A DNA stretch of 63,831 nucleotides, filler included, from Rhabdomonas costata (Eukaryota): assembly GCA_019059605.1 (NCBI GenBank). It is 55 parts of 55 records of this genome, joined end to end, with 100 filler letters (N's around TTAATTAATTAA, not from the genome) between each part and the next. Parts side by side here need not be neighbours in the genome. Positions count along the whole stretch, not along the records: positions 9,301 to 10,362 come from JAHMHO010030642.1; positions 10,463 to 11,525 come from JAHMHO010030643.1; 53 more parts are not named here. The stretch is one strand, 5' to 3'. The notes below the pieces were generated by a model. That model was given only the letters and a program-made list of their open reading frames with translations, was not told the origin of the DNA and did no database searches. Position numbers and translations under genes: made by a program. Below are positions 3,782 through 60,464 of this stretch, piece by piece (position 1 is the stretch's first letter; the number at the start of each line of letters is the position of its first letter).

Positions 3782-4648
3782 CAGAGGGGAGCGGAGGGGG
3801 GCACTGATGTAGGGGAGGGGTCACCCCAAAGATCGACAGGCAACCTCACCCTTCTGCATATTTCCCTCACAATGGTGCTGTGAGAGCCAAAGACCGGAGA
3901 CATCACGGAGATTAGTGCGCACACTGGGTACGCGTGTAAAAGAATGTGAAAGACACCCTGTGAATCACTGACGCAATCGGGAGGCATTCGATTTTGTATT
4001 CCCAATTCCCAAAGGAATGTGGTCACATTGGAAAATCTGGTGCTGCCTGCCCAAATGAGTTGAGGCAACTATATCCAGCGTGAGCAAACTGCCTTGGTAC
4101 TCACTGGAAGAAACAAGCTACTGCAAGATGTACCGAGCTCCAAAAAGCGCGAAATATCTACTGCGGAGGCACGTGGCGCACTGGCCACAGTTAAACATTG
4201 GTTTGAGAGGAATCCAGAGGAAATGCAATCAAACAGAAGAAAAGACACTGCCGCAGTGAACACAAAAGAAAGAAAAGAGGAAGCAACCAAGCACAGCAGA
4301 CCTACAGGACAAAACATTGTTGCCCGTTACACGAGACTGCTCAGTTGCCAGGGGACGCGGAGCAGAGGAGCCGTGACTGACTGACTCCATAATACAGCAG
4401 CGCCCAAACTCAGGGGCGCACACAGCTGGAAAGCTGGAAACAAAATATCCCCAAAGACCGAAAGAATAAATGAGAAATGATGCCAATATAAGAGCATCGT
4501 GCATGGAAGGGGATAAAAATGTAGCATTCATAGCAGTGCCACACAACCNNNNNNNNNNNNNNNNNNNNNNNNNNNNNNNNNNNNNNNNNNNNTTAATTAA
4601 TTAANNNNNNNNNNNNNNNNNNNNNNNNNNNNNNNNNNNNNNNNNNNN

Positions 4649-5712
4649 TGCCAAGGAATCTGCTGCCATTGTGGACCAGCTGAGTTTGATTTCAACCGCG
4701 TTCCATTCATGTAGTGGCAGCCAGCGTTCAGAATTTGGTACAGGCTTAGTCGAGTAGCAAGCAGTGTATTGCATATTTACGACCACAGGGCCGTCTGTAA
4801 GTTGCGCCATTGGTTTAGGACAACACAAGGCAAATTCCCAAAGGAAAGCAAAGAAGAGCAAAGTCAATCTGACCCAAGGCCCAAAAGAGCCTGGGAGAAA
4901 GCCAAAACGCCTCGGGCTAAGCTAGAGTTCGCTCTGAACATGCGTTCGCCACATTCCCTAAGCCGTACGACAAGCACTACCCGCAACACTCCACAAACAT
5001 GCGGCATCAGGACTAGTGGACCTAGACCGCCAGTAGAGAGTGGCTTCTGCACCTTTCTGGTCGCAAATGGAGCAAGAGCTCAATTCTAAAGGTGATGGCT
5101 CTCAGAGACACAGACACTTCCAAAGGTACCACGGACTTGAAATACACAACCAGACAGTGGAATGCAAAGGGCTGGACTTACGCCCTCTACAACTTCTCTT
5201 CGTGACTCTGGTACTTCTTGCATACGGTGCGGAATTACTTGTCTTACACAGGGCGCTGGCCAATGAGACCGCCCATTTTTACTGCGCTCCTCTGGTACCA
5301 TCTCCATACAGTCTCTCTGGGGGACCCACCACCGCCGCATCACCCATTATGAGACTGGTCTCAAGGGGACGGACATCGGCCGTGTTACCACAACGTGTTG
5401 GGGCGGACCACCAGGTACCTCTATCGGTGATCTGCGTAGTTCTTAAAGGCTTTCTTGGTGGCGTCAAACAATTAGCACTGGTACATAGTCCCGTCGATCT
5501 TTTCCAGTGGACAAGAGGACAAAGTGAGGCAACAAGTACAGACATGTATCAACCGGCTGAAGTCTGAGTGGGCAGTGGCCCTGCAGGAGCTGAGTTACTG
5601 GAACAAATACAAGCTGCGAGAGATTCTTGACTGGATTCAAGCAAACTTTCCAGCCAGGAAGATGAAGGCTAACCTGATTTCTGTGGAAACGGCCATCATC
5701 TATGAACTCAAN
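4649..5712 (+). pseudogene. Intronless frameshifted coding remnant, probably transposon- or virus-derived, family unassigned
   Basis: Protein-like segments in shifting frames across the contig (e.g. RAWEKAKTPRAKLEFALNMR; CINRLKSEWAVALQELSYWNKYKLREILDWIQANFP) with no evident splice signals. Confidence 0.3.
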
Positions 5713-9300: not shown

Positions 9301-9480
9301 TTTGAATGGATTATAGACCAAGATTTTAAATGCTATTTATACAACAAAGAATTTGACTTGGAAATTGAAGATGGACATGTGAGTTCAGATTTAAGCGTTG
9401 ATAGAATAAACAATAAAATATATCATAGTAAACCCAATTGTAAATTATTTTGTGTAGATTGCAATAGGAAAAAGAAGTGA
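9301..9480 (+). CDS. HNH-type endonuclease domain, C-terminal 59 aa (not in ORF track)
   Basis: The frame from 9301 reads FEWIIDQDFKCYLYNKEFDLEIEDGHVSSDLSVDRINNKIYHSKPNCKLFCVDCNRKKK*, matching the DR-x-x-N...H...N...CxxCN HNH pattern. It is intronless and very AT-rich, unlike host exons. Confidence 0.8.
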   Translation, partial: FEWIIDQDFKCYLYNKEFDLEIEDGHVSSDLSVDRINNKIYHSKPNCKLFCVDCNRKKK

Positions 9481-10160
9481 ATATTCATACTTCATCAAAA
9501 TGATATAAAATTTAATACGAAATATTTTATAGGATTTTCATATTATGAATGCACTGGGTGTTCTCTATAAGTGTTAGAGATTATGAATGGACTGGGTGGA
9601 ATTCGGATTTTTGTGACCACGTTTTATAAATGTGAAAAAACGAACAAATGCGGCACCTCACAGTACCGCTAGGTCCGCGAGCGGGACCGGAGATCAGTTC
9701 AGGAGACCCCAACAAAAAACTACCTCCACCCAAACAAACCTATCAAGCAAAAAAGTGGTTTTGCTCATGCCGTTCCAAACACAGCTTGAGCGCGTTTACT
9801 TACGTTGCAGAGCGGCAGGCCCTGCGAAGTACCATCGCCATGAAGGAGGGGGATGGATCAGGATGCCTTCGGAGATCTTCAGTTTGGAAGGCGCCAAGAG
9901 AAGTGAGGGAGGGAGGGAGAGAGGAGAGTGCAGCATCCCGCTGCTGAAACCAATGCCGACGTACAGGGAGGCGACGATTATTGAAAAGCTTTTATGAAAT
10001 ATTTTATGGCAAATATTTCTGAAATTATTGTTTTGAATTTTTTGTGATTTTTTTCGGCTGAGAATAGGCACACCTTCTGAAAATGTTCGGAGAGAAAAAA
10101 GACCGGTTGTGGTGTGTGTAGAGTTGTTGTTGAATGTGGGCATGGTATACTACTACTACT
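9301..10160. mobile_element. Putative terminus of a Polinton/Maverick-like element or endogenous Polinton-like virus
   Basis: AT-rich HNH ORF, then ~680 bp of non-coding sequence ending in ACTACTACTACT (10149-10160), the reverse complement of the (AGT)n termini typical of Polintons. Confidence 0.55.
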
Positions 10161-10862
10161 ATAATATAATTATATAATCTTATTCCGGAATGTGGAAGGC
10201 ATTTGATTATATGGGTAATTTTTATTTACAGAAAATGAGGTTCTATTATTAGTAAATTCCGCAGCAAATGGCATTTCACACGGTTAGCGTGAATAGCGTC
10301 AATCGAGTGAAGGCTTAGTTTCCACTGATGTGTAATCTACGCTGATACAGCTATGTTTTGGANNNNNNNNNNNNNNNNNNNNNNNNNNNNNNNNNNNNNN
10401 NNNNNNTTAATTAATTAANNNNNNNNNNNNNNNNNNNNNNNNNNNNNNNNNNNNNNNNNNNNGTTTGTTTTGATCTTCCTGTGTTGAACTTACCGTGTGA
10501 TCTGTGATTCCCTACAGGTGAAAGTTTCCATCGATGATTATTCACTTCAGTAGAAAAGAATGCAAACTGTGATCACACACAGAAGAAGTTCTCGAGTTGG
10601 AATTTGTTAACTGAAATCAAATGGGAAAAAACCCAGAGTAGATCCTGGAGACCGGACTCTGGAACTGGTAGCAGAGGTTTTGTTTCGACCTGCGCCCACC
10701 CCCAAGGAAACCAAGTGAAGTTTGTTTTGCAAAAAGCACCATTGTTTCCAACAACGTGAAGTAATAGGATTGGTACAGTGGAAAAATTGTTTAAAAACAA
10801 TATCGCTAAATCCAATAAAAACTCACAGTACACATAGTTGTATGGAATAGAAACAAAGAACA

Positions 10863-11650: not shown

Positions 11651-12688
11651 TGGTTTTCCAATCCAATTAAGTGCCGCGACAGCCCTGCCACCAATTACCT
11701 GGACCTCGTCAATCGCAGCACAACGTCTACCTTAATCTTCGAGGAGGTCAGCTTGGACTTTCGCCCAGAGATGAAGGCCCGCTACGGCGTTACAGGTCTA
11801 GTGGGGCCCCGTGCTCTTCTAAATTTACAATTGTTTCGTTTTGCTGGAGCATGTAGCATTCGTTTATGAACGTTTTTGGAGGGATGGTGGGCGGTAGGGC
11901 CGAAATCCACGTGCACCTTCCGAAAGTACTCCCTGCAGTACTACCACATGTGTCGGTTTTTCGACTACCTTATCTTCCACTCCGCCACGCTGAAGCAATT
12001 TGAGTATGTGTGGCGGATGGACGGGAACATCGCCCTGGCTAAGCCCCTGACATGTGACCCATTCTTGGTACCCACTTGCATTCCCTGTGAATTCCCCTGA
12101 CATGTGACCCATTCTTGGTACCCAATTGCATTCCCTGTGAATTCGTGAGCAACACGTTTAGGCTGTCCTCAGTCAGGGTTGTCCCAGTCAACCACTTGCT
12201 GCGGAACTCTGACGCATGAGTCCTTCCACGCTTCCATTCGCCATGAATTGCACCCACTGTTTTTGTCTTGCTTCTGAGTTTGTCCACACTGGCGTATCCT
12301 CCATCTGCCTGATTTGCACATTTGCTCAGAGTATTTATGATGGAATGTGTTGAAGTTTGCTGTCCCACATATCGTCAGCTCGCAAACCTGCATTTCACCA
12401 CGAGCCGTCTTGCAAATTTTGGGGATATGTTCATCAGGGATTTTGGTGGCTTTGATGTGCATTCATAGCATTAAAGGCCTCGATTTTGTACTGACTCTTG
12501 AATCCTGAGCCATTTCTACTGAGCTCGTTTGCCGTCCCCCTTCTTCTCTACCCAGGTGATGCGGAAGGCCAACGCCATCTTTGGGTTTTACCGCTGGGAG
12601 TACCAGGAGCCCAAGGGCTGCATGGGCCCGATCCGCGAGTGGGGCTTTGCCTATGCTACTTCCCGCAACTTCACCCCCCCCCAACACA
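11651..12688 (+). CDS. Glycosyltransferase family 15 (KRE2/KTR-like mannosyltransferase), 3 exons
   Basis: Exons 11651-11795, 11898-12067 and 12556-end join via GT-AG introns to give ...YGVTGPKSTCTFRKYSLQYYHMCRFFDYLIFHSATLKQFEYVWRMDG...CDPFLVMRKANAIFGF, with the YxHMCRF, YxWR and DPF..M...GF motifs. Confidence 0.88.
12044..12143 (+). repeat. 50-bp tandem duplication spanning an exon end and splice donor
   Basis: cccctgacatgtgacccattcttggtaccca(c/a)ttgcattccctgtgaatt occurs twice with one mismatch. Confidence 0.95.
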
Positions 12689-26742: not shown

Positions 26743-27258
26743 CCGTGGAGCTGGAGAGAGTGATGCTTGGACTGGAGGTTGTGGCGGTCTGCTGAGACTT
26801 GAAGGCTTTGGAGCTGGAGCGGGGCGAGCGAGCGGTAGAGGTGAAGGTTCCCGTCAACTTCATTGCAGAGACCACTGTCGACGAGGGCAAGTTCGTGAGG
26901 CGCAGATTCCCGGAAATGGTGCAAGCAGACAGATTCAGGTACGTCAGGGAGCTGGGAAGGCTCAGGCTAAGCGACCCTTGGATTGTATTGTCAGAGAAGG
27001 TGAAGCTCTGGAGCGAGCTGGGCAGGGAGCTGATGGTGAGGCTGGAGCTAAACGTGGAGCTGGAGAGCTGCAGCGTTGTCAGAGAGCTGGGAAGATTTAC
27101 GATGTTAAGAGTGCTTCCGAAGGTGGCCGAGGAGATCTTAATGTAGGTCGCGGAGGAGAAGTAGGAAAAGTCCAGCGTGCCCGTGCACTGGTAGCCAGAC
27201 ATATTCACTGAGGTCTGGTAAGACGGCACGCTGTTCTGGTCGGCCCACGTGGACACAC
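26743..27258 (-). CDS. Ser-rich leucine-rich-repeat protein exon (surface-protein-like)
   Basis: Repeats LPSSLTTLQLSSSTFSSSL / LPSSLQSFTFSDNTIQGSL / LPSSLTYLNLSACTISGNL; acceptor ccctgtag|. Confidence 0.85.
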
Positions 27259-28004
27259 TACAGGGAACTGATTAAAAAATGTTCGTGTGGACGATCAAAA
27301 ACGTGGGCGGAGCAATACGGATTTCAGGATTAATGGATGGTGTTGCAAGCGGACCCCTCCCCCATTTGAAAAGCAAAACGCCTCCTACCCCCACTCTTTC
27401 TGAATCTCACAAAAAAATACAAAGTTAAGAAAAAGAAACAACTAGGAGAGACTTTCATGTTGGTCAAAAATGTGAACCGGGGGACACGACTTGCAATTTT
27501 CGATATTAAAACTTGGTGTGAACATCTTTCCTCATCGAGATGCCAAAAGATGAGGACAATAGCCGTCAGCGCTGATATAATGCTAACAGCAGGCTGATCG
27601 CCGGACACCACGAGAGAGGTAGCATCTTCCTTCCGTCCGCAGACCATCTCTTTTGACACTACTTATGTTTCGGAGCAATTTTTGTGCACCAATAAACGAA
27701 TAACCCAACTCGCAGCGCCGCAGGGCGGAGGATGCTCCACCACTCGTGGGCAGCCCCGATTCTCCGGCTTGCCCCTCGCCTGATGCCTCAACTCAAGCAG
27801 CTGTTNNNNNNNNNNNNNNNNNNNNNNNNNNNNNNNNNNNNNNNNNNNNTTAATTAATTAANNNNNNNNNNNNNNNNNNNNNNNNNNNNNNNNNNNNNNN
27901 NNNNNGGGGTTTGGGGGAATTAAGTACGCCAGCGTTTCTCAGAGTTTGGGTGTTTGCACTGAGTTGGCTTGGTTGATTTTGAACTGAATGCATCTGTTGC
28001 TCAG

Positions 28005-56277: not shown

Positions 56278-58140
56278 CTCGTTGGCAGGCGAGGCTTGTA
56301 ATGACCACTGCATCGCTCTCCGCGAACCACAAAGACGGGCAGGGAATGTCGGAAAAGATACATTAAATGTGGAGGAACCCCAAATCAGGGGAAGTTGTTG
56401 TCAAGCAACAAACAAATATTGCACCCGCTTTTTTTTGCCCCGTTGAAGCGACAGCATGCTGAAGATCTCACAAGTTATGGACCCTGAAACGATGCTGCTT
56501 GTGAGAGCCTACTGCTAGCCTACTGCTTGCTGTGTTCCGGCACGCGAGAATGGCACTGAAGGACCTGGTTGGGTTTCTATGTGTGTGTATGTGTGTGTAT
56601 GTGTGTGGTGTGTGTGTTCCCCGCGGAAAGGACTAGAACAAAGTGTGTGCTCTTGCTTGTCTCTTGATATTTCTTTCTTGCAGGTTGCCTGTTGTTCTCT
56701 ATTCATACAAACATTTGCATCTTTTATGAATGTCGTCGCCACCTCCTGAGTCTGTGTTCGAGCAAGAATGCTGCTTAGGCCGTGTGCTGGTACTTTGCAT
56801 TGCTGCCTTGTTCTCCCCTTGTGAACTCATCCACGTTTGACAGTTTGACCGAATGGNNNNNNNNNNNNNNNNNNNNNNNNNNNNNNNNNNNNNNNNNNNN
56901 TTAATTAATTAANNNNNNNNNNNNNNNNNNNNNNNNNNNNNNNNNNNNNNNNNNNNCCCGAGGGCAGCGCCGTGAGGAGCACCGGGGGCACGGACAGCAG
57001 GGCCTATCCCCAGAGAAAGCACACTCGAAACCCAAATCCACGGTAGCTCGGTGGCTCTTTTCTCGTCCCTTGTGAGACAGTTTTCACACAGCGATAAGGG
57101 ATAAGGGATATTCGAGGAATCAGTAACCCCACAGCCTCTTTGCACTCCTGCAGTCTCACCGCTACACGAAAGCTGCAGTATTACAGTAGTTCAAACGGAA
57201 ACCCGCCCCACACAATGTTCCAAAGCCGGCGCAAAGGATCTATTCCCCACCACCACCACCACCAAAAAAAAAAGCACCCAGCGTCAGATTACTATTGCCA
57301 CTGTTGAGGTAACAGGCAGAGAGGTGCGGAGGGGGGGGGGTATGGAAGCACCCTGGACATATCCGTGATGTTGCGGATGGAGAGGATTCCACGTTCAACG
57401 GTGGCCCGCTTGCTGCAAGCCTACCAGACAAAAAAAACACGAAGTCCACAGAATCGTGACACTTCTATGCAATAAATTGTTGCTGCCAAAAAATGCAAAA
57501 GAAGAAAGTTATTGAACAATGGAGAGCTCCATAGCGCTCCTCCTCCTCCTCCTCCTCTACCCAAACAAATAAGCGCATTGTGCTCACCGCACAAAAGCAC
57601 CTCCGCGGATTTATGGGTTTTGATCTTCGCCTGGGCCTGGTGCAGTCGAGTTAGAACCACGTGGGAAGCTTCGTGGGTGTACAGCAGCCTGCAACACGCG
57701 CCAAGGAATGACTTAGGCACAGGATCAAAACCCGGTAGCCAACAAGCGGCTGTTGACTAGGAAGCTCACGGAACCAAATTGCGCTTCTTCCCTCTTCCCT
57801 CTTTCTTTCTCCCCTCCCTTTTTGTTTGTTTGATAGTTGGATTTTGCTCGTTCCCTTCCTTTCATTGCTTCCTCACACCCTTCTCTCATCAAACTATTCG
57901 GAGGCAACTATAATTGAATGCGTCAGCACTCCTGCCCCGCTCCCTCCCCAGCTGCTTCTGAATAGTTTGATGAGAGAAGGGTGTGAGGAAGCAATGAAAG
58001 GAAGGGAACGAGCAAAACNNNNNNNNNNNNNNNNNNNNNNNNNNNNNNNNNNNNNNNNNNNNTTAATTAATTAANNNNNNNNNNNNNNNNNNNNNNNNNN
58101 NNNNNNNNNNNNNNNNNNTGTGGTGGGTGTGCGTGGGGGG

Positions 58141-58188
58141 TGGTTGTGGTTGTGGTTGTGGTTGTGGTTGTGGTTGTGGTTGTGGTTG
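58141..58188 (+). repeat. (TGGTTG)8 microsatellite
   Basis: Eight perfect hexamer units. Confidence 0.97.
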
Positions 58189-60464
58189 TCGCTTTCTCGA
58201 GCGAGCGAGCGAGAGAGAGATTTAACTGCATCGTCCTTCTTCCGATTCAAGACACGAAGTGGGGTAAGCGGTTTTCCTGGAACTCGGAGCTCTTCTCGAG
58301 AACCCCGAGCTGTAGAGCAAGAGGATACGCTTCCGTTGCTTCCGAATAGTGTGAGCCTGTGCCCAGTCGCCGCTGGTGGCAGAGAAAGAAATACGTTCCG
58401 AAGCTCTGTGTGCGATGTTCTTGCGCTGGGAACTGCGACTCCACTCTTCGTCACTGCTGCATCGGCAGCGATCCTGTGATGACACGACAGCATACGTTCA
58501 ACTGTCACGGTGCGGTGGAGCCCATAATTGCAAAATGCGGTTAACAAATCCGGAACGACGAACTCTCCGAGGGAGTGCACTAAGCATGCTCCATCATCCC
58601 AAGCTCAACCTCCGTACTCTCCCGTTTTGGCAGTCAAAGTTGTTCTTCTGATAGGAAGTGTTCATTGCCGCCGTCATCATGCGTCCACTTCTGTAATGCT
58701 ACTCGCCAGATGTTGGTATCGACACCCCAAACGAGAAGTTGGCATGCCTGGCTCAGAAAACTCGCACAGGCTGGACGCCGACGAGGTGTAGGGGTTACAC
58801 CAAATGATCCAGAAGTGTGCCTTCGACTCGAGAATGAGCGCTTTCGCATCACTCGTGTTGGTAAGGAGGGAGGGGCGACTCAGCGTCCCCTATAACTCAC
58901 CAGTCCACTTTTCTCATGCGGGCGGGCGCTCACCGAGGGTGGTGTCCAGCTCTAAACGTTTATCACCTCGTGGACATGCTGTTTACCTCAGTCAAGGATT
59001 GCCCTGAAGGGTACCTCCCGGGCGTGCTCAACCCATGCTAGCCACATGCGATCAAAGCACCCGACCACCAGATGTGGATACTTGCCAGCAGATGACAGGG
59101 TTCGGACTCGACATAACCAGAATCCCACCGATCTAAGAGGTGGCCAAGATGCCTCAGGACGATCTCATTGCAACAAAACANNNNNNNNNNNNNNNNNNNN
59201 NNNNNNNNNNNNNNNNNNNNNNNNTTAATTAATTAANNNNNNNNNNNNNNNNNNNNNNNNNNNNNNNNNNNNNNNNNNNNGGTGGTGGGGGGGGCTGCAA
59301 GTTGCCTTGCAAGCCTTGAGCTCTTTCCCAAATTTTCAGGGAGTTTTTCACTTGAAAATTGAAAAAGAATTTTTTCGACGAGTTATCCCTCCCTTCTCAA
59401 AATGCAGACTGGTTGGCGGCTCGCGCGCTTCACGGGCAAATATCCCATGTTCCTCCTTTAATTTATTGGTCGTGCCGTTGGGGGTACCGTTTGGCTCAGC
59501 CCTGGTGACAACAAAAGATGAAAAAGCAACTCAGAAGGAGGCACGACCCCAATGGGTTCGCCATTTTTTAAAATTGAAAAAAATAATCTAGCTCCTGAAA
59601 AAATATGGTTAGTAAAAAAAACTGAAGAAAAAAAGGTTAATCTTTAACATGGCCTGGGAGGCAAAATACGGTATGGAAATGAGTTTTGCGCGCCCAAGGC
59701 GCGGGGATTTTTTAGTTTAAATCTGCTGTTCTTTCTTACTAAGAGGTACACTGCAAAGGCGAAGTTTCGGCCTAAAGAAAACTCTTTTTAAATGTGACAC
59801 AGGCGTGTTTCGGGTGCACGGCATGCACCTTGAACGCTACACTATATACTTTTCATAAAAATTTGGAACTATGTTTGCAACGCTGGAACGCTGGATTTCA
59901 AATTTGAGGGTATCGGGGGATCCGCCCAGGTCTGTTTCCACCCCATGACCATCACCTGGTTGTATATGTCCGAAAAATTGGAGATTACCCGGCTTTGAGT
60001 TTTTTGTGAACAAGCAGGAACATGACGGAAAGCATTTGCGCTGCCAACCCAGCCACGCGGAAGTCTATTGAGTACCCCGAAAAAACCCAGTTTCTGGTTT
60101 TTCGCATATTTTTTTCCCGTCTGGCGAATGTAAAGGAACAGGACCATTACCCCGTCCGCGTGAGATACTCGGCCTTCTAAAGGTGTACGTTTTTGGGGGA
60201 CGTTCCGCGCGGTACGGTTCTTTCGTGGGATGTATTCGCCAGGCCCTTTCTCTCTCTCTTTTTCTTTCCCGTTGCTATTCTTGTTGTCCACACAAAGCCC
60301 AACCTGTTGGTCGCGAAACCAAACAACCAAACACGCCCAACACNNNNNNNNNNNNNNNNNNNNNNNNNNNNNNNNNNNNNNNNNNNNTTAATTAATTAAN
60401 NNNNNNNNNNNNNNNNNNNNNNNNNNNNNNNNNNNNNNNNNNNGTGGTGGGTGTGTTTGGGGTT

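Follow-up and report, generated by a model that had tools for sequence, protein, structure and literature searches.

The virus world to which the locus described here is related includes the Polintons/Mavericks proper, a related virus class defined by an active protein-primed family B polymerase (pPolB), an integrase, terminal inverted repeats (TIRs) and a 6-bp duplication. Closer to the locus are the Tlr1-like helicases of Polinton-like viruses (PLVs) and some virophages, which, as outlined by Krupovic, Yutin and Koonin (2016, PMC5499653), are proteins of 1,000 to 1,400 aa composed of an inactivated pPolB followed by an SF1 helicase and a C-terminal HNH domain. Their genes were found on AT-rich elements of ~15 to 20 kb together with those for an A32 ATPase, a capsid protein and often rve. 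In IMG/VR, the large helicase-HNH gene was present in 7 of 12 related loci, on contigs of 5.7 to 20 kb and 24 to 31% GC, and related contigs of ~15 to 21 kb in the same GC range bore genes for a Sputnik-type capsid, an A32 ATPase and an rve integrase. Sputnik-type major capsid genes (PF21915/PF22031) were found in L002 and L007, the latter also carrying a V18/19 minor capsid gene; virophages with this type of capsid (class Maveriviricetes) share the helicase-HNH gene, which stands beside the capsid genes in both loci. A32 ATPase genes were found in L003 and L006. Protein atlas neighbors of P0009 were helicase proteins of 1,200 to 1,340 aa, those of known taxon being Preplasmiviricota, and one neighboring cluster had the HNH domain PF01844 on 84% of its members. 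HNH genes that stand alone but share the motif also occur on phage-like contigs (L008 to L012, E values of 1e-4 to 9e-4), an observation that counts against the family assignment.

The window, that is, the whole stretch of 63,831 nucleotides that was analyzed, consists of 55 segments of 1,059 to 1,064 bp each, joined by 54 artificial spacers (N-TTAATTAATTAA-N). The segment of interest and the coding features recognized on it are as follows.

9301 to 10362, no strand: stand-alone contig of 1,062 bp with an artificial spacer on each side; GC, 0.384.
9301 to 9480, plus strand: probable 3' end of a Tlr1-like helicase gene, comprising its last 59 codons (linker plus HNH, or beta-beta-alpha-metal, nuclease domain) and TGA, from homology and fold.
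9340 to 9342, plus strand: TAC (Tyr14) in the first CxxC zinc knuckle, where relatives carry its second Cys, from the alignment of relatives.

This contig had the lowest GC content of the 55 segments, the remaining 54 having a GC content of 0.513. Compared with the other 54 contigs, it matched over no more than 34 bp (82%), and no further copy was present within the window. The initial annotation had described an open frame, and we recovered it as quoted: positions 9301 to 9477 on the plus strand are free of stops and encode 59 residues, followed by TGA at 9478 to 9480. It runs uninterrupted from 9301, the first base of the contig; since both 9301 and 10362 are contig ends, the frame is truncated at the contig start and the adjoining DNA of the window is unrelated.

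A phmmer search with the 59-residue peptide gave 62 matches at an E value of ≤1e-3, the best at 7.6e-14 with 50% identity. Thirteen of these matches were the extreme C termini of proteins of 1,208 to 1,433 aa, 11 of which contained SF1 helicase Pfam domains (Viral_helicase1/AAA_30/AAA_19/UvrD_C_2), and the window residues aligned with the linker and HNH domain of these full-length relatives. Identity over the HNH domain was 39 to 53% to 19 members of the Tlr1-like helicase family and 38 to 42% to L002 and L007; the window contig, as distinct from the Sputnik-type virophages, carries no capsid or other virophage gene. PHROG matches of the peptide were endonuclease VII (1.4e-5) and HNH (9e-4). 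Scans against Pfam and NCBIfam returned no family even at an E value of 10, a single-sequence search of the PDB gave no match, and a word-indexed search for longer homologues found none. The polymerase-like N-terminal part of the Tlr1-like helicases is taken here from PMC5499653, as far as that account goes, and not from our own profile search: the DNA_pol_B Pfam domain was detected in none of the 13 full-length relatives (E value of ≤1e-3), and a HMMER profile of the relatives run against the PDB matched helicases only (RecD and Dda), leaving that part undetected. No match was obtained by protein and DNA searches of a phage collection of 50,697 records or in 185,579 prokaryote genomes, and neither metagenome contigs nor IMG/VR contained a close relative of the contig. 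Judged by these sequence comparisons, the source is neither prokaryotic nor phage. The full-length relatives indicate that the peptide is probably the C-terminal HNH domain of a ~1,300-aa helicase fusion, the helicase part of which would lie off the contig. This family, the domains it combines and the viruses that encode it have been described before; the assignment is tempered by the short comparison of 59 residues, over which the closest known sequence shares 50% identity.

The predicted model of the domain (pLDDT, 91) displayed strands at residues 31 to 35 and 47 to 51 followed by a helix at 52 to 58, that is, the beta-beta-alpha fold of the HNH superfamily. The best 16 structural matches found with VIA-align were all HNH nucleases, with Z scores of 5.2 to 3.9, which are low in absolute terms for a domain that is very short; the top ones were Gme HNH (Z, 5.2; rmsd, 1.9 over 51 residues), McrA (5.1) and the HNH domain of ZRANB3 (5.1). 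Foldseek against the PDB returned nothing at an E value of ≤0.001. Residues D34, R35, H42, N46 and N55 were all present and are invariant or nearly so among the relatives. The usual "DH" position reads D-R in the window domain, as it does in PacI, the catalytic base being assigned tentatively. PacI (PDB 3ldy/3m7k) was also the top solved-structure match of the domain profile (E value, 0.035), with D-R, Asn and the C-x2-C-N helix aligned, and superposed with a Z score of 4.2 and an rmsd of 3.9 over 57 residues. PacI differs in having Tyr at the family's invariant His42 and in being a free-standing bacterial restriction enzyme, a small HNH nuclease rather than a domain of a helicase; this weak match thus suggests a resemblance in mechanism, not membership. 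Together with the PHROG and structural matches, it bears out the reading of the peptide as an HNH-type nuclease made in the initial annotation, and the homologues and the gene context of the relatives likewise support placing it among the Polinton-related viruses, broadly understood (Preplasmiviricota). What did not hold was the assignment to a separate small gene of a Polinton/Maverick proper, since the nuclease is probably the C-terminal part of a helicase fusion that marks PLVs and some virophages.

The first zinc knuckle reads C-Y-L-Y. Position 14 is Cys in every other row of alignment A1 (19 of 19) and in 22 of 23 rows of alignment A2, the remaining row being gapped, which confirms the earlier reading that TAC at 9340 to 9342 has cost this copy one zinc-binding Cys relative to all 19 aligned A1 relatives. 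The second knuckle (C51 and C54) is intact. A sequencing error might account for the Tyr codon.

Downstream of the stop codon, the contig is a mosaic of the following features.

9481 to 9640, no strand: AT-rich noncoding stretch after the stop, GC 0.275, with virus-like k-mers, from composition and k-mer score.
9641 to 9965, no strand: GC-rich block, GC 0.548, of host-like composition, lying between AT-rich stretches, from composition and k-mer score.
9966 to 10362, no strand: AT-rich noncoding tail reaching the contig end, GC 0.348, with no gene recognized, from composition.
10149 to 10160, plus strand: (ACT)4 triplet run ACTACTACTACT, from the sequence.

The DNA between the stop and the end of the (ACT)4 run had been called noncoding, and the 882 bp after the stop indeed lack any ORF resembling those of the related viral loci: tblastn against 9481 to 10362 with every ORF from the 12 loci, rve genes included, gave nothing at an E value of <1e-2, and the rve integrase is absent from this region. 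Within the first AT-rich stretch, a unit of ~33 nt occurs twice (9528 to 9560 and 9566 to 9598, 38 bp apart and 79% alike). A 19-nt repeated unit after the stop was matched exactly at 5 places in IMG/VR; as none of these matches extended beyond 20 to 24 nt, they were set aside as chance.

True breaks in composition lie near 9640 and 9965, around the 325-bp block. Twenty percent of host 325-bp windows were at least as GC rich as this block (host median, 0.511), and its virus-versus-host log-odds ranged from -10 to -19, similar to the host mean of -12.7. It had no Rfam, tRNA or repeat match, and a 26-nt stretch of it was matched exactly in none of the metagenome contigs. The block may be inserted host-type sequence, or it may mark a recombination or assembly joint; the joints near 9640 and 9965 could be assembly chimeras. 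A 12-nt exact direct repeat (family D3; 9520 to 9531 and 9996 to 10007) flanks the block plus 109 AT-rich bases and was considered as an insertion target duplication, which remains unproven given a chance of ~0.1, by rough estimate, in AT-rich DNA. Of the host 397-bp windows, 0% were as AT rich as the tail, which has a mixed k-mer profile that peaks at +17.1 in 10151 to 10250. A search of the contig against Rfam gave one snoRNA match, at an E value of 0.92, which is chance level.

The sequence homology, the HNH fold, the loss of Cys14, the alternating composition and the lack of a gene downstream are observed directly, and from them we infer that the contig is probably an AT-rich fragment derived from a PLV or virophage (Preplasmiviricota), presumably integrated into a eukaryotic genome of ~51% GC and already eroded in part. 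Its only recognizable gene piece would be the last 59 codons of a Tlr1-like helicase, the copy would be a nonfunctional remnant, and the (ACT)4 run would be internal to it.

Three other explanations were weighed against this one. The contig could instead belong to a giant endogenous viral element (Nucleocytoviricota) invaded by host repeats, with the helicase-HNH gene coming from a PLV, virophage or similar parasite inside it. There is a precedent in Euglena gracilis, whose giant endogenous viral elements are described in PMC12455990 as having 25 to 35% GC in a genome of ~51% and as being invaded by transposable elements. AT-rich DNA likewise surrounds the host-like block here and the other 54 contigs have a GC content of 0.513, and the contig of relative L001 was binned with a giant-virus metagenome genome. 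Against this, Nucleocytoviricota markers were sought on the contig and on the other 54 contigs and none was found, and the relatives for which a context is available lie on small contigs of virophage or PLV size. We therefore regard a giant element as unlikely.

Still less probable is a source outside the host genome, either a free virus or some other organism present in the culture, in which case the GC-rich block would be an assembly chimera and nothing would be integrated. The contig is very short and belongs to a highly fragmented assembly, it is the sole virus-like contig among the 55, and its GC content is the lowest, all of which would fit a foreign source; such a source would, however, need two chimeric joints within 1 kb, and, as noted, the IMG/VR, metagenome contig, phage and prokaryote collections hold no close relative. 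Searches of the other 54 contigs for virus-like pieces found none, and capsid or packaging genes were absent both from the 1,062-bp contig and from those 54. The 31 ORFs of at least 150 aa on the other contigs gave 1 Pfam match, an FNIP repeat, and the protein atlas neighbors of that ORF were generic leucine-rich-repeat clusters only. Neither Rfam families nor tRNAs were found in the other contigs.

The last explanation is that of the initial annotation, which sees in 9481 to 10160 the right TIR of a Polinton/Maverick-like element that has integrated, in (ACT)4 the motif for protein priming at its end and in ATAATA a duplicated target site. The run and the 6-mer that follows it are present as claimed, and the run resembles the end motif of vertebrate Mavericks, which according to PMC8097293 end in 5'-(AGT)2//(ACT)2-3' with 6-bp duplications; moreover, the contig has no gene downstream of the helicase-HNH frame. 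A junction at 10160 nevertheless finds no support in the DNA on either side of it. Composition does not change there (GC, 0.354 to the left and 0.342 to the right), only 0.2% of 202-bp windows from the other 54 contigs are as AT rich as 10161 to 10362, and the stretch to the right is the most virus-like in the 3' part, the peak of +17.1 exceeding the maximum of 15.1 among all left-out host windows. The putative TIR, of which the window contained no inverted copy, would also have to include the 325-bp host-like block. In its own right, the exact 12-mer is rare under shuffling: allowing ≤1 mismatch, it was matched once against 0.08 expected, and a match occurred in 8 of 100 shuffles. Runs of at least 4 triplet copies nevertheless numbered 11 in the 59,079 non-N bases of the window, or ~0.16 expected per 882 bp, and the (ACT)4 run is therefore unremarkable as a microsatellite. 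None of the related loci had ACT/AGT repeats at a contig end, the 12 loci yielding 2 internal matches. Because the polymerase of the family is inactivated, at least as it is portrayed in PMC5499653, a protein-priming end motif is not expected, and the contig lacks the active pPolB of Polintons/Mavericks proper. Nor is the helicase gene as a rule the last one among the relatives: rve directly follows the large gene in 3 of the 7 loci that have it (L001, L003 and L005), and other genes follow in the rest, although a long noncoding terminal region after the helicase gene may make it last in this particular element. We thus read (ACT)4 as an internal microsatellite in AT-rich DNA, with the end of the element not on the contig, and hold a Polinton terminus at 10160 to be the most improbable of the three.

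Returning to the endogenous PLV or virophage fragment, the live element would have had a Tlr1-like helicase unwinding the linear viral genome and a PacI-like HNH domain nicking or cutting DNA, with a metal presumably held by the conserved Asp/Asn, the invariant His acting as the base and two Cys4-type zinc sites serving as a scaffold. In the window copy, a zinc ligand is lost (Cys14 to Tyr), neither an integrase nor any other gene lies downstream, and the AT-rich noncoding DNA is broken by the 325-bp host-like block, which together suggest a nonfunctional remnant. As the 59 codons are still open in DNA of 27% GC, the decay would be slight or recent.

A bolder version of this reading, which we put forward as tentative and on the doubtful side, is that the contig does come from a PLV or virophage resident in the nuclear DNA of a euglenozoan or of another protist that has been sampled as little, that the 325-bp block reflects erosion by host repeats and that the whole is a trace of a past three-way contest among host, giant virus and virophage. 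Our literature search turned up no report of PLV or virophage elements in euglenozoans; all it returned were insertions of giant viruses in Euglena.

Being the tail of a gene, 59 residues long, on a contig of 1 kb, the finding serves mainly as a seed for searches of the full assembly. If the integration is true, it would add one more protist lineage with endogenous PLV or virophage DNA, which is thought to serve in defense against giant viruses. Were Euglena in addition the host, the finding would be consistent with the giant-virus insertions described for Euglena in PMC12455990.

The 63,831-base window consists of 55 segments of 1,059 to 1,064 bp and 54 identical artificial spacers, each built as an N run, TTAATTAATTAA and a second N run. 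The contigs being artificially concatenated, a reading that crosses a spacer or depends on one connects unrelated DNA. The contig under study is a single segment of 1,062 bp (9301-10362) bounded by spacers; its first and last bases, 9301 and 10362, are therefore ends of a contig, to which the adjoining DNA in the window is unrelated. The frame quoted in the initial annotation is present on this contig: positions 9301-9477 (+) encode an uninterrupted run of 59 residues that ends at a TGA codon (9478-9480), and no stop precedes it as far as the first base of the contig.

Pfam, NCBIfam and single-sequence PDB searches with the 59-residue peptide gave no match, and PHROGs returned matches to endonuclease VII, with an E value of 1.4e-5, and to HNH endonuclease, with one of 9e-4. 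An AlphaFold model of the peptide, built from 24 sequences, had a pLDDT of 91 and a beta-beta-alpha layout. With this model, Foldseek returned nothing at E<=0.001; in an alignment-based structure search of 48,161 PDB representatives, all of the 16 best rows were HNH nucleases, among them Gme HNH (Z 5.2, rmsd 1.9 over 51), McrA (Z 5.1), ZRANB3 HNH (Z 5.1), several Cas9/IscB HNH domains, Cap5 and PacI, the modest Z values being expected for 59 residues. Positions C11, R35, H42, N46, C51, C54 and N55 are invariant in the alignment of relatives. The best match of the domain profile was PacI, a small HNH restriction enzyme (E 0.035), in which the D-R motif, an Asn and the C-x2-C-N helix align with the peptide family, whereas a Tyr stands in the place of the invariant His42. 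We conclude that the peptide was rightly read as an HNH domain and that it represents the PacI-like "D-R" variety; the choice of the residue acting as its general base is one that we infer.

When 1.84 billion representative proteins were scanned in full with phmmer, 62 reached E<=1e-3, the strongest of them with an E value of 7.6e-14 and 50% identity. Thirteen hits were proteins of 1,208 to 1,433 aa matched at their extreme C-terminus, and the window residues align to the linker and nuclease domain of such full-length relatives. In a Pfam scan of 30 of the hits, including all 13 long proteins, SF1-helicase families were present in 17, and in 11 of the 13 long proteins they (Viral_helicase1, AAA_30, AAA_19, UvrD_C_2) lay directly upstream of the match. 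Another long hit, P0038 (1,641 aa), is a beta-propeller/peptidase protein and was set aside as clearly unrelated. In the protein atlas, the full-length relative P0009 adjoins clusters of helicase proteins of 1,200 to 1,340 aa, one nearby cluster has the HNH domain PF01844 in 84% of its members, and the neighbors are Preplasmiviricota where taxa are known. This architecture is shared with the Tlr1-like helicases described by Krupovic, Yutin and Koonin in 2016 (PMC5499653), which are 1,000 to 1,400 aa long, contain an inactivated protein-primed polymerase domain and an SF1 helicase in their C-terminal part, and in Polinton-like viruses (PLVs) end with an HNH homing-endonuclease domain. Since a PDB profile search of the relatives gave helicase matches only (RecD, Dda), the polymerase-like part is taken from that paper. 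The HNH claim held for the domain, on the structural, PHROGs and PacI profile matches, but not for a separate small nuclease gene. The peptide is instead the predicted C-terminal tail of a replication protein already known from PLVs and some virophages, and it does not mark Polintons/Mavericks proper.

Scanning IMG/VR gave 12 related loci, seven of which (L001 to L007), on contigs of 5.7 to 20 kb with 24 to 31% GC, carry the large helicase-HNH gene. Sputnik-type major capsid domains were found on L002 and L007, the latter also with a V18/19 minor capsid, and an A32-type packaging ATPase on L003 and L006, with a weak match, slightly below the Pfam cut-off, on L002. The gene next to helicase-HNH was compared in six of the seven loci. 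In L001, L003 and L005 it encodes an rve integrase and begins no more than about 50 bases further on; in L002 it encodes the ATPase, in L007 a Bro-N protein, and in L006 it is an unassigned gene on the opposite strand. Besides its helicase-HNH and rve genes, the 20-kb contig L005 has a gene for the small subunit of ribonucleotide reductase (4625-5587, PF00268, E 1.4e-99), which is unusual in an element so small. In the other five loci (L008 to L012, contigs of 5 to 55 kb), the HNH motif lies in free-standing open reading frames of about 150 to 180 aa; of these, L008 was scanned with Pfam and proved phage-like, having a family A polymerase, a carbamoyltransferase and a methyltransferase. The same motif being free-standing on phage-like contigs and fused on PLV/virophage contigs, the domain moves between such genomes. 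The contig itself had no protein or DNA match in 50,697 phage records, and exact 8-residue words, which exclude close relatives only, gave no relative among 185,579 prokaryote species (one genome each) or in a metagenome scan. On the phage and prokaryote results, the latter speaking to close relatives only, a prokaryotic contaminant was rejected.

The first CxxC of the peptide does read C-Y-L-Y, with TAC at 9340-9342. Position 14 is Cys in 19 of 19 other rows of one alignment of the peptide with relatives (A1) and in 22 of 23 rows of a second (A2; one row gapped), so that the window copy alone is without this zinc ligand. The change from Cys14 to Tyr needs one base, TGC to TAC, and the TAC may be a sequencing error. 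As to the suggestion that the copy may be decaying, the domain is otherwise intact and no stop interrupts the 59 codons although the DNA has 27% GC, so any decay is slight.

The contig has the lowest GC content of the 55 segments (0.384). The other 54 together have 0.513, which is compatible with Euglena gracilis as the host, and their similarity to the contig never exceeds 34 bp at 82%. Their 31 long open reading frames gave one Pfam match (FNIP repeat, E 4.4e-9), their translations look non-coding, and no RNA families or tRNAs were found in them. They contain the following features:

12044-12144: 50-bp unit duplicated in tandem, near-perfect (98%)
26744-27271, minus strand: FNIP-repeat open frame of 176 aa (Pfam PF05725), with generic leucine-rich-repeat clusters as atlas neighbors
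58140-58189: (GTGGTT) x 8.3 without mismatch, beginning 22 bases from a contig start; a candidate satellite or telomere-like repeat

Along its length the contig is a mosaic, with a GC content of 0.271 over 9301-9640, 0.548 over 9641-9965 and 0.348 over 9966-10362, and the other contigs contain no 340-bp window that reaches the AT content of the first part and no 397-bp window that reaches that of the last. The GC content of the central block is usual for the host: 20% of the windows from the other 54 contigs equal or exceed it. It had no Rfam family, tRNA or repeat match, and a 26-mer from it had no exact match in metagenome contigs. An exact 12-nt direct repeat (9520-9531 and 9996-10007, family D3) lies on either side of the block as a possible target duplication; the chance of such a match in AT-rich DNA is, as a rough estimate, about one in ten. 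The block may have arisen by insertion of a host repeat into the viral DNA, by recombination or as a chimera of the assembly.

In the initial annotation, the DNA after the gene was read as ending in the right terminal inverted repeat and host junction of a Polinton-like element, at 10160. The (ACT)4 run is there (ACTACTACTACT at 10149-10160, followed by ATAATA), and under dinucleotide shuffling such a 12-mer is rare (one found against 0.08 expected with at most one mismatch; a match in 8 of 100 shuffles). Real genomes contain microsatellites, and the window's 59,079 non-N bases hold 11 triplet runs of at least four copies, which gives an expectation of about 0.16 for the 882 bases 3' of the stop codon. 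In the 12 related loci, ACTACTACT has only two matches, both internal and none at the ends of these contigs, which seldom are true ends; no inverted copy of the proposed repeat was found within the window. In tblastn with every open reading frame of at least 50 aa from these loci, the HNH region was the sole match on the contig, and 9481-10362 held no integrase, ATPase or capsid remnant. Directly 3' of the stop codon, a unit of about 33 nt occurs in two copies 38 bp apart (9528-9598); exact IMG/VR matches to their shared core, ATTATGAATGnACTGGGTG, extend no further than the core, and no relative was found.

GC content is alike on either side of 10160 (0.354 left, 0.342 right), and the AT-richness of 10161-10362 is matched by only 0.2% of host 202-bp windows. 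Fourth-order k-mer log-odds of virus loci versus host contigs, per 100 nt, were +12 to +18 over 9301-9600, -10 to -19 over 9601-10000 and mixed thereafter, with a peak of +17.1 at 10151-10250, directly 3' of the ACT run; left-out host windows had a mean of -12.7, a 99th percentile of 4.1 and a maximum of 15.1. Within the 3' half, the DNA to the right of the supposed junction is thus the stretch that least resembles the host. Breaks are visible near 9640 and 9965, and not at 10160.

We consider it likely that the contig is an AT-rich fragment derived from a PLV or virophage, probably endogenous and eroded, with the HNH-encoding 3' end of a Tlr1-like helicase gene that has lost one zinc ligand, the ACT run being an internal microsatellite. 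The initial annotation was confirmed in part as to observation and supported in part as to interpretation. It is unlikely that the contig is a piece of a giant-virus insertion carrying a PLV/virophage-type element, a reading favored by the resemblance of its composition pattern to the giant endogenous viral elements of Euglena gracilis, described as having 25 to 35% GC versus about 51% for the genome and as invaded by transposable elements (PMC12455990). A free virus or a chimera, an assembly chimera being among the readings of the GC-rich block, is quite improbable. Slightly less probable still is a terminus at 10160: vertebrate Mavericks do end in 5'-(AGT)2//(ACT)2-3' with 6-bp duplications that serve jumping-back in protein-primed replication (PMC8097293), but in the present gene family the polymerase domain is inactivated (PMC5499653).

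Endogenous copies of PLVs and virophages have been documented widely among protists (PMC10120064); the text of that paper lists one discoban, Neovahlkampfia, and does not mention Euglenozoa, kinetoplastids or Bodo. Literature listings and abstracts gave no report of Polinton-type elements in Euglena or Euglenozoa, and the supplements of these papers may list further hosts. Until the full assembly is searched, the interest of this probable PLV/virophage remnant is low to moderate.
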